The translations under genes were made by a program, and so were the position numbers. From NCBI RefSeq assembly GCF_003334765.1, contig NZ_QOWT01000004.1: DNA of 64,000 nt; one strand, 5' to 3'. Source of the DNA: Escherichia coli. GTDB lineage: Bacteria > Pseudomonadota > Gammaproteobacteria > Enterobacterales > Enterobacteriaceae. Below the pieces are notes generated by a model. It made no database searches, had not been told where the DNA came from, and saw only the letters and a list, made by a program, of their open reading frames with translations. Below, piece by piece: positions 62,147-63,451 of this stretch. Position 1 is the first letter of the stretch. Each line of letters opens with the position of its first letter.

Positions 62147-62731
62147 CTATCCCATCAGCGGGTTTTTCCCTTCCCGACGTAACATCTGACACAGCGCGAT
62201 TAGCGGTAAACCAACCAGCGTGTTAGGATCACGCCCCTCTAAACGCTCAAACAGCGTAATGCCAAATCCTTCACTCTTAAAGCTACCCGCGCAGTGCAGG
62301 GGATGCTCTTTACGCACGTAATTATCAATCTCCGCCTCGCTCAGGTGACGGAAATGGACGTCAAAAGGCTCCACTTCTGTTTGCAGATGCCCATTCGCCG
62401 AATTAAACAACGCCAGTCCAGTATAGAAGGTGACGATATTGCCGCTGGCTTTGCGTAATTGCAGACGGGCATTTTCTTCCGTTAACGGTTTACCGGTGAT
62501 TTCGCCATCAAGAACACATACCTGGTCTGAACCAATAATTAAATGATCCGGATAACGTGACGCCAGAGATTGCGCTTTTTCTTGTGCCAGTCGAAGCACC
62601 AACTGTCGCGGTGATTCGTCGCTGCGTGGGGTTTCGTCGACCTCTGGTGCTGCACATTCAAAAGAGATTTGCAGTTTTTCCAGAAGAGCGCGACGCCATG
62701 GCGAGGTGGAGGCTAAAATAAGTTTAGGCAT
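62147..62731 (-). CDS. yceF: Maf-like nucleoside-triphosphate pyrophosphatase YceF
   Basis: Start placed at the ATG (complement 62729-62731; [20 protein letters not shown]) for 194 aa; the track ORF extends 13 codons upstream. Confidence 0.88.
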
Positions 62732-62893
62732 ATTTTTTTCCATCAGATATAGCGTATTGATGATAGCCATTTTAAACTATGCGCTTCGTTTTGCAGGTTG
62801 ATGTTTGTTATCAGCACTGAACGAAAATAAAGCAGTAACCCGCAATGTGTGCGAATTATTGGCAAAAGGCAACCACAGGCTGCCTTTTTCTTT
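62725..62893 (+). ncRNA. sraB: Probable small RNA SraB (pke20) in the yceF-yceD gap; 5' end approximate
   Basis: A terminator-like hairpin (ggcaacc aca ggctgcc) plus a T-rich tract ends at 62893, 37 nt before the yceD ATG, which is where I recall SraB ending in K-12. The start coordinate is back-calculated from a remembered ~169-nt length, not observed. Confidence 0.4.
62868..62893 (+). terminator. Terminator-like hairpin ending the putative sraB transcript
   Basis: ggca-a-cc-aca-gg-c-tgcc followed by tttttcttt. Confidence 0.5.
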
Positions 62894-62920
62894 GACTCTA
62901 TGACGTTACAAAGTTAATAT
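62892..62920 (+). promoter_or_regulatory. Predicted sigma70 promoter immediately upstream of yceD (-35 TTGACT, 17-bp spacer, -10 TAATAT)
   Basis: TTGACT at 62892-62897 and TAATAT at 62915-62920 with a 17-bp spacer; the -10 ends 9 bp before the yceD ATG at 62930. Confidence 0.45.
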
Positions 62921-62929
62921 GCGCGCCCT

Positions 62930-63451
62930 ATGCAAAAGGTAAAATTACCCCTGACTCTCGATCCGGTTCGTACGGCTCAAAAACGCCTTGATTACCAGGG
63001 TATCTATACCCCTGATCAGGTTGAGCGCGTCGCCGAATCCGTAGTCAGTGTGGACAGTGATGTGGAATGCTCCATGTCGTTCGCTATCGATAACCAACGT
63101 CTCGCAGTGTTAAACGGCGATGCGAAGGTGACGGTAACGCTCGAGTGTCAGCGTTGCGGGAAGCCGTTTACTCATCAGGTCTACACAACGTATTGTTTTA
63201 GTCCTGTGCGTTCAGACGAACAGGCTGAAGCACTGCCGGAAGCGTATGAACCGATTGAGGTTAACGAATTCGGTGAAATCGATCTGCTTGCAATGGTTGA
63301 AGATGAAATCATCCTCGCCTTGCCGGTAGTTCCGGTGCATGATTCTGAACACTGTGAAGTGTCCGAAGCGGACATGGTCTTTGGTGAACTGCCTGAAGAA
63401 GCGCAAAAGCCAAACCCATTTGCCGTATTAGCCAGCTTAAAGCGTAAGTAA
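62930..63451 (+). CDS. yceD: Large ribosomal RNA subunit accumulation protein YceD (DUF177)
   Basis: 173-aa ORF immediately upstream of rpmF, as in the yceD-rpmF-plsX-fab operon. Confidence 0.9.

Follow-up and report, generated by a model that had tools for sequence, protein, structure and literature searches.

How a gene is translated when its promoter runs up to its start codon is the question raised by yceD of Escherichia coli, which heads an operon encoding ribosomal protein L32. The stretch analysed here (the window) is 64,000 nt of E. coli DNA (NCBI RefSeq assembly GCF_003334765.1, contig NZ_QOWT01000004.1). An earlier note, made from its sequence alone, had placed a sigma-70 promoter with a start only 2-3 nt before the yceD ATG, directly after the probable terminator of the small RNA (sRNA) SraB. 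This promoter is the same object as yceDp2 (P2) of E. coli K-12 in RegulonDB and EcoCyc, one of two starts, with a transcription start site (TSS) at -2/-3 and no structural difference. RegulonDB and several papers already record this promoter, together with its TSS and leaderless character. The contribution of the current study is the deep conservation of the geometry that links promoter and ATG; no report of its conservation beyond Enterobacterales was found in the literature searched.

The last 3 kb of the window are 100% identical to E. coli MG1655 and are present in 5425 of 5426 complete E. coli genomes, with the K-12 gene order rluC, yceF, sraB, yceD, rpmF and plsX. Adding 1083864 to a window coordinate gives the NC_000913.3 coordinate, as anchored on sraB (1146589-1146757) and yceD (from 1146794).

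Anatomy and use of yceDp2

The elements of the promoter, the upstream promoter yceDp1 (P1) and the gene are as follows.

62773-62786, forward strand: yceDp1, the in-vivo SraB promoter, with -10 TAAACT at 62773-62778 and TSS at 62784-62786 (published TSS maps)
62892-62897, forward strand: yceDp2 -35 hexamer, TTGACT (consensus scan, conservation)
62898-62914, forward strand: yceDp2 spacer, 17 nt (sequence)
62915-62920, forward strand: yceDp2 -10 hexamer, TAATAT (consensus scan; also assigned as the -10 by Mendoza-Vargas et al., 2009)
62921-62927, forward strand: yceDp2 G+C-rich discriminator, GCGCGCC, the first 7 nt of the 9-nt stretch GCGCGCCCT (62921-62929) between the -10 and the ATG
62928, forward strand: yceDp2 primary transcription start, a C at -2 from the ATG (published TSS maps; one base upstream, 62927, in RegulonDB)
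62930-63451, forward strand: yceD coding sequence (CDS), 173 aa, DUF177, 23S rRNA accumulation protein (annotation, open reading frame list, N-terminal alignment)

The earlier note had given both hexamers, the spacer and the ATG at 62930 at exactly these positions. TTGACT, the 17-nt spacer, TAATAT and a start 8 nt past the -10 (6-9 nt is required) are those of a sigma-70 promoter. In a consensus scan of 61500-64000, yceDp2 is the sole match, with a score of 9/12 (5/6 in the -35, 4/6 in the -10), but 2.2 matches of this quality are expected by chance in these ~2.5 kb, and the hexamers alone are not significant. 'Near-consensus', as the promoter had been called, is thus an overstatement, although a sigma-70 promoter is indeed in use. 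The full geometry, TTGAC-N18-TAnnnT-N9-ATG, is found a single time in the 64-kb window, where 0.01 occurrences are expected by chance. A chance motif was rejected as an explanation on these geometry statistics and on the conservation described below. The -35 hexamer shares its first 2 nt with the end of the SraB terminator T-tract (62892-62893). None of the Shine-Dalgarno (SD)-like tetramers AGGA, GGAG and GAGG lies within 21 nt upstream of the yceD ATG, in line with the claim that there is no room for an SD sequence.

The predicted start at 62927-62928 coincides with a 5' end at 62928 that three published studies found independently. Mendoza-Vargas et al. (2009; PMC2760140, Table S1) obtained 8 pyrosequencing (454) reads for a 5' end of yceD at -2, to which they assigned the -10 box GTTAATAT, and 2 reads for yceDp1 at -145. 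Romero et al. (2014; PMC4681348, Table S2) list TSS FWD_(II)-1146015, which is -2 in U00096.2 coordinates; it is enriched by tobacco acid pyrophosphatase (TAP) treatment and hence carries a 5'-triphosphate. In SMRT-Cappable-seq, where full-length transcripts are captured by vaccinia capping of 5'-triphosphate ends, the P2 start at 1146792 (window 62928) has 681 reads in M9 and 595 in rich medium, and the P1 start at 1146648 (window 62784) has 429 and 320, respectively (Yan et al., 2018; PMC6131387). P2 is thus the stronger of the two yceD-rpmF starts in both media. In addition, Lange et al. (2017; PMC5230787, Table S4) include 'yceD-rpmF, P2, 5'-UTR CCTA' among the leaderless genes of RegulonDB and detected this transcript in their own transcriptome ('+' in the table). 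The TSS maps that the earlier note had proposed to consult therefore hold the -2 start, and also show that yceDp1 is used and that P2 is not the sole promoter. yceDp2 is a working sigma-70 promoter, and its product is a functionally leaderless yceD-rpmF mRNA that begins 5'-pppCU-AUG.

The downstream part of the operon contains the following features.

63489-63494, forward strand: strong SD sequence of rpmF, GAGGAG (sequence)
63503-63676, forward strand: rpmF CDS, ribosomal protein L32 (annotation)
From 63757, forward strand: plsX (annotation)
63815-63844, forward strand: 11-bp perfect hairpin, CAGTGCCTGCAGCATTGCAGGCACTG, in the 5' coding region of plsX (terminator-like match; transcript end 1147708 of Yan et al., 2018)

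P1 and P2 transcripts alike end mostly at 1147708 (window 63844), and longer variants reach plsX, fabH and fabD. About half of the P2 transcripts stop at this site, 88 nt inside plsX, and the others run on into plsX-fabHD (Yan et al., 2018). Thus yceD-rpmF is the principal unit, extended into plsX-fabHD by partial read-through; the yceD-rpmF-plsX transcript that had been proposed does arise from P2, but not as the main product. The plsX hairpin starts 58 nt into the CDS, has a T-poor tail and is passed by ~10-20% of transcripts. Its role could be to attenuate transcription within the gene or to block 3'-exonucleases. Further published TSSs lie inside yceD, at window 62952 (1146816 in U00096.3), 63009 and 63204 (1146096 and 1146291 in U00096.2), and could drive rpmF-plsX independently of yceD. 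An end at -29 of rpmF, from rapid amplification of 5' cDNA ends (5'-RACE), is also listed in published data.

Conservation of the promoter-ATG geometry

Comparison was made over 92 yceD loci: 80 species-level loci from Enterobacteriaceae and relatives, together with Erwinia, Pectobacterium, Ewingella and distant loci fetched via representatives of 50%-identity YceD clusters. The distant sources are Candidatus Malihini, an Enterobacteriaceae metagenome-assembled genome (MAG), a Sodalis MAG, Salinivibrio kushneri (Vibrionales), Dongshaea marina, a Paraphotobacterium-like marine scaffold and two metagenomic loci with 46% and 34% YceD protein identity. The pattern TTGAC[T/A]-17 nt-TAnnnT is present in all 92 loci, down to 34% protein identity, and the ATG lies exactly 9 nt past the -10 in 91 of them (5 nt in the Sodalis MAG). 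The -35 is TTGACT in 90 loci and TTGACA in two. The -10 occurs as TAATAT, TAGTAT, TATGAT, TATCAT, TAGAAT or TACTAT, with T1, A2 and T6 kept throughout.

Among the 80 species-level loci, the segment CTTTGACT...GTTAATATGCGCGCCCTATGCAAAA is invariant and the spacer is of fixed length, while the spacer bases and the stem of the terminator vary; Erwinia, Pectobacterium and Ewingella show the same pattern. The 9-nt stretch between the -10 and the ATG is identical in all 51 enterobacterial rows of alignment A1 and is present in 86 of the 92 loci, the discriminator not always being G+C-rich. One further locus (L088; 49% identity, from a Logan SRR27475802 contig) was left out of the set. It is a copy of E. 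coli sraB-yceD in which almost every G is replaced by A, probably because reads from bisulfite-type conversion were assembled, and its 'protein' stands as a separate cluster in the 50%-identity representative library, a database artefact. Viral contigs, also scanned for diverse YceD loci, yielded none.

In the Sodalis MAG (760-803 of locus L090), the discriminator is 4 nt shorter, giving TAGTAT-GCCCT-ATG with the A of the ATG 6 nt past the -10. Transcripts of this locus might begin exactly at the AUG or might lack it, and decay of a symbiont genome may be responsible.

The upstream terminator hairpin is detected only in typical Enterobacterales and not in the distant taxa, and a 56-nt hairpin within SraB is limited to Escherichia, Salmonella and Citrobacter. 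This suggests that the promoter abutting the start codon is the oldest layer of the region and that the SraB module was added later. The T-rich run just 5' of the yceDp2 -35 (TTTTCTTTGACT, region 62885-62897) is retained in three distant loci (L089, L092 and L093) that have no terminator hairpin. The T-tract may originally have been a part of the promoter (UP-like), co-opted later as the tail of the SraB terminator.

Translation of yceD and alternative readings

Under a broad definition (5' untranslated region of 0-5 nt, AUG start, no SD sequence), the P2 mRNA of yceD is leaderless, whether its TSS is taken at -2 or, as in RegulonDB, at -3. In ribosome profiling, Nakahigashi et al. (2014; PMC4378010) named yceD as a gene 'without 5'-noncoding leader' that is less efficiently translated than rpmF on the same mRNA, ribosome density being higher on rpmF than on yceD. 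The long P1 isoform also lacks an SD sequence before yceD. Occlusion of the AUG by a fold of the P1 leader was considered and rejected: the leader is no more stable than shuffled sequences (z = -0.38), and its centroid structure leaves the AUG unpaired. Conservation at synonymous sites is 0.98 over yceD codons 2-9 and 0.82 over the rest of the gene (ninth of 163 windows), which points to modest extra constraint at the nucleotide level on the first 25 nt of the reading frame.

Firing at 62928, in tandem with yceDp1, yceDp2 gives the 5'-pppCU-AUG yceD-rpmF mRNA. These data suggest a mechanism in which YceD would be initiated without an SD sequence, and inefficiently, on both isoforms; on the short one this would follow a leaderless-type route made inefficient by the 2-3 extra 5' nucleotides. 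With a weak yceD start and the strong GAGGAG of rpmF, a single stringently controlled transcript could then yield little YceD and much L32. Stringent promoters characteristically carry a G+C-rich discriminator downstream of the -10, before +1, and GCGCGCC in P2 is of this kind; it would make P2 an rRNA-like promoter repressed by guanosine tetraphosphate (ppGpp) and DksA. In Salmonella, ppGpp represses SraB, which arises from P1, more than 4-fold. Together with the likeness of the discriminator to those of rRNA-type stringent promoters, this suggests that P2 is probably controlled by growth rate and ppGpp. The explanation as a whole, including tandem P1 and P2, SD-free translation and stringent control, is held with good confidence. 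The literature searched contains no dedicated functional study of yceDp2 or of leaderless yceD translation.

Several observations weigh against this explanation. In all maps, 2-3 nt (CU or CCU) precede the AUG, and a strict definition of leaderless mRNA, with the AUG at the very 5' end, does not cover yceD. Kim et al. (2012), using 5'-triphosphate-dependent RACE-seq, called the -145 TSS alone (491 reads) and none at -2. In the data of Romero et al. (2014), the -2 site is only class II, that is, TAP-enriched but behind an upstream promoter and without a step in coverage, and yceD is absent from their five leaderless E. coli mRNAs; this absence is probably due to the position of the class II site behind an upstream promoter. 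The published translation efficiency of yceD with kasugamycin is 0.40 (P=0.08, leadered and leaderless isoforms pooled), the opposite of the resistance of classical leaderless mRNAs. The authors of that study regard genes with two 5' ends as not interpretable in the assay, and a 2-nt leader might stay sensitive, since the drug occupies the path of the mRNA positions just 5' of the start codon. No isoform-specific translation data for yceD were found in the literature. The case for stringent control of P2 is made from its sequence, a literature search for ppGpp data on yceD or P2 having given no usable result.

If the annotated start codon were wrong and the true one lay downstream, the P2 transcript would have a conventional leader. 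Nothing apart from the lack of an SD sequence at 62930 favours this. However, Met1 and the motif M-x-K-x-K-L-P of YceD align in 37 diverse homologues with identities as low as 30%, the first ~35 codons past the ATG contain no canonical in-frame start codon, and 62930 is the start in all annotation pipelines. Upstream extension of the reading frame is blocked by an in-frame TAA at 62915-62917, at -15 from the ATG. The aligned Met1 and the upstream stop together fix the start codon at 62930. Extension upstream and an alternative start downstream were therefore both rejected; the annotated start is upheld, and an error in it is barely credible. It is also very improbable that the 62928 end is a processing product of read-through transcripts from P1 or sraB, with the hexamers coincidental. 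The method of Mendoza-Vargas et al. (2009), high-throughput pyrosequencing, does not distinguish primary from processed 5' ends, the -2 TSS was not called by Kim et al. (2012), and the hexamer match alone does not exceed chance. Nevertheless, the site is TAP-enriched (Romero et al., 2014), and capping of 5'-triphosphates recovers it with more reads than P1 (Yan et al., 2018). Furthermore, the hexamers, the spacer length and the distance to the ATG are conserved amid variable sequence, in a geometry expected only 0.01 times per window.

The serious rival among those weighed accepts the P2 RNA as real but holds that YceD is not made from it. The yceD frame would then be a long 5' region of an rpmF mRNA, and most YceD would be made on the P1 read-through isoform, where ribosomes, perhaps with the help of ribosomal protein S1, would initiate on an A/U-rich leader independently of an SD sequence. 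The kasugamycin value and the low ratio of ribosomes to mRNA on yceD relative to rpmF are consistent with this. So are the 2-3 nt that precede the AUG, as only very few additional nucleotides are said to be tolerated at the 5' end, and the fold of the long isoform, in which the AUG region is unpaired. The long isoform is, however, equally devoid of an SD sequence, and the synonymous sites of yceD codons 2-9 are unusually conserved. Moreover, the distance from the -10 to the ATG is exact in 91 of the 92 loci, including distant taxa with no detectable terminator hairpin, which is hard to explain unless the position of the AUG relative to +1 matters. That P2 serves only rpmF is on balance considered improbable, and initiation of YceD on the P2 mRNA is preferred.

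SraB, neighbouring features and known systems

SraB and its structural elements occupy the region directly upstream of yceDp2.

62725-62893, forward strand: sraB as annotated, 169 nt (Rfam RF00077; NC_000913.3 ncRNA b4418)
62784-62839, forward strand: 56-nt SraB stem-loop, a lineage-specific insertion (comparative alignment)
62835-62859, forward strand: small conserved hairpin of the P1 leader and SraB (Rfam consensus structure)
62864-62893, forward strand: SraB intrinsic terminator, stem 62864-62874 with 62878-62888 and T-tract to 62893 (Rfam structure, folding, covariation)

The annotated RNA matches Rfam RF00077 with 210.6 bits (gathering threshold 130) over the full length of the model, positions 1-169. 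The end at 62893 after a hairpin and T-tract, which the earlier note had given for SraB, is exact: both the RF00077 match and annotated sraB (to 1146757) stop there. The promoter yceDp1 sits inside annotated sraB, 144 bp upstream of P2 and at -145/-146 from the yceD ATG. Its TSS is supported at -145 (Mendoza-Vargas et al., 2009), 1145872/3 (Kim et al., 2012; Romero et al., 2014) and 1146648 (Yan et al., 2018), and its -10 (TTTAAACT) is conserved across Enterobacterales. A re-analysis of two data sets, from differential RNA sequencing (dRNA-seq) and Cappable-seq, moved the SraB 5' end ~60 nt downstream of the annotated end (PMC7967276). This re-assigned start is the P1 start, and the resulting RNA is ~105-110 nt long.

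The in-vivo 5' end of SraB coincides with yceDp1, and a transcript begun there therefore has two possible outcomes: termination at 62893 leaves short SraB, and read-through gives a yceD mRNA with a 146-nt leader. Read-through from sraB into yceD, which the earlier note had suggested checking, does contribute: it supplies ~35-40% of the capped full-length yceD-rpmF transcripts (Yan et al., 2018). The tables of that study contain no long transcripts from the annotated sraB start.

The terminator stem is well supported by covariation. Over 49 distinct enterobacterial sequences, 92% of cells are paired and 13 cells are changed on both sides, a result reached by none of 500 shuffles, and there are compensatory changes at the top of the stem. 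The terminator works as an attenuator of P1 transcripts; regulated behaviour, as in a true attenuator, is putative. The 56-nt stem-loop is found only in E. coli, E. albertii, Salmonella and a Citrobacter, and most Enterobacterales, including Escherichia sp. L003, are without it, so that the RNA from P1 to the terminator would there be only ~55 nt. This stem-loop starts precisely at the yceDp1 start. In the small hairpin, the CGCA/TGCG pair is replaced by CGCT/AGCG in Pectobacterium, a compensatory change.

The features on the far side of SraB are as follows.

61076-62035, forward strand: rluC (annotation)
62147-62731, reverse strand: CDS of yceF, a Maf-family 7-methyl-GTP (m7GTP) pyrophosphatase (annotation)
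62761 and 62836, reverse strand: yceF transcription starts (reverse-strand TSSs 1146625 and 1146700 of Yan et al., 2018; TSS 1145848 in U00096.2 of Kim et al., 2012)

The first 7 nt of yceF, at its start codon end, overlap the 5' end of annotated sraB. From both of its starts, the yceF 5' untranslated region is antisense to 37-112 nt of sraB, and at least five promoters are packed into the 198-bp yceF-yceD intergenic region. Between rluC and yceF, a palindrome like the repetitive extragenic palindromic (REP) elements (62067-62139) matches Rfam naRNA4 (RF02564) on both strands with 54 bits, just under the gathering score of 59.5.

SraB resembles sRNAs that arise by premature termination of mRNA leaders, in that its 5' end is yceDp1 and it ends at a terminator abutting P2. 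It differs in being catalogued as an independent sRNA with a 169-nt form. The GCGC-type discriminator directly past the P2 -10 resembles that of the rrnB P1 stringent promoter. With stringent promoters of rRNA and ribosomal proteins, P2 shares an operon for a ribosomal protein and a ribosome-biogenesis factor, and the neighbouring SraB is ppGpp-repressed in Salmonella. Unlike the rrn P1 promoters, which have a 16-nt spacer, P2 has a spacer of 17 nt and starts with C.

Chromosomal leaderless mRNAs are rare in E. coli, where one study puts them at 0.4% of TSSs and a second counts five, and most encode prophage repressors. yceD has in common with the natural examples (lambda cI, Tn1721 tetR, pgpA, rhlB and the prophage genes dicA, racR and ymfK) a primary TSS at or near the AUG and the lack of an SD sequence. 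It differs from them in having 2-3 extra 5' nucleotides in place of a 5'-terminal AUG, in heading a ribosomal-protein operon, in possessing a second, leadered isoform, and in translation that looked kasugamycin-sensitive rather than resistant.

The operon that yceD heads encodes L32 and a ribosome-biogenesis factor and reads into lipid-synthesis genes. The exact spacing of promoter and ATG, which is kept from Enterobacterales to Vibrionales and in still other taxa, suggests selection on the mode of initiation itself. A more far-reaching proposal is that the abutment of promoter and start codon is an ancient selected feature of gammaproteobacterial yceD-rpmF operons, older than the SraB-terminator module. 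Leaderless-type, 70S-dependent initiation of YceD, sensitive to the balance of initiation factors, would then feed ribosome status back onto the synthesis of YceD and, via protection of the mRNA, of L32. This proposal is tentative and, taken as a whole, doubtful. yceD offers a natural test case for translation from very short leaders in gammaproteobacteria, and for the production of little YceD and much L32 from one transcript. If leaderless control has indeed been selected, no housekeeping leaderless mRNA would be better conserved than yceD in this clade, which has very few of them.

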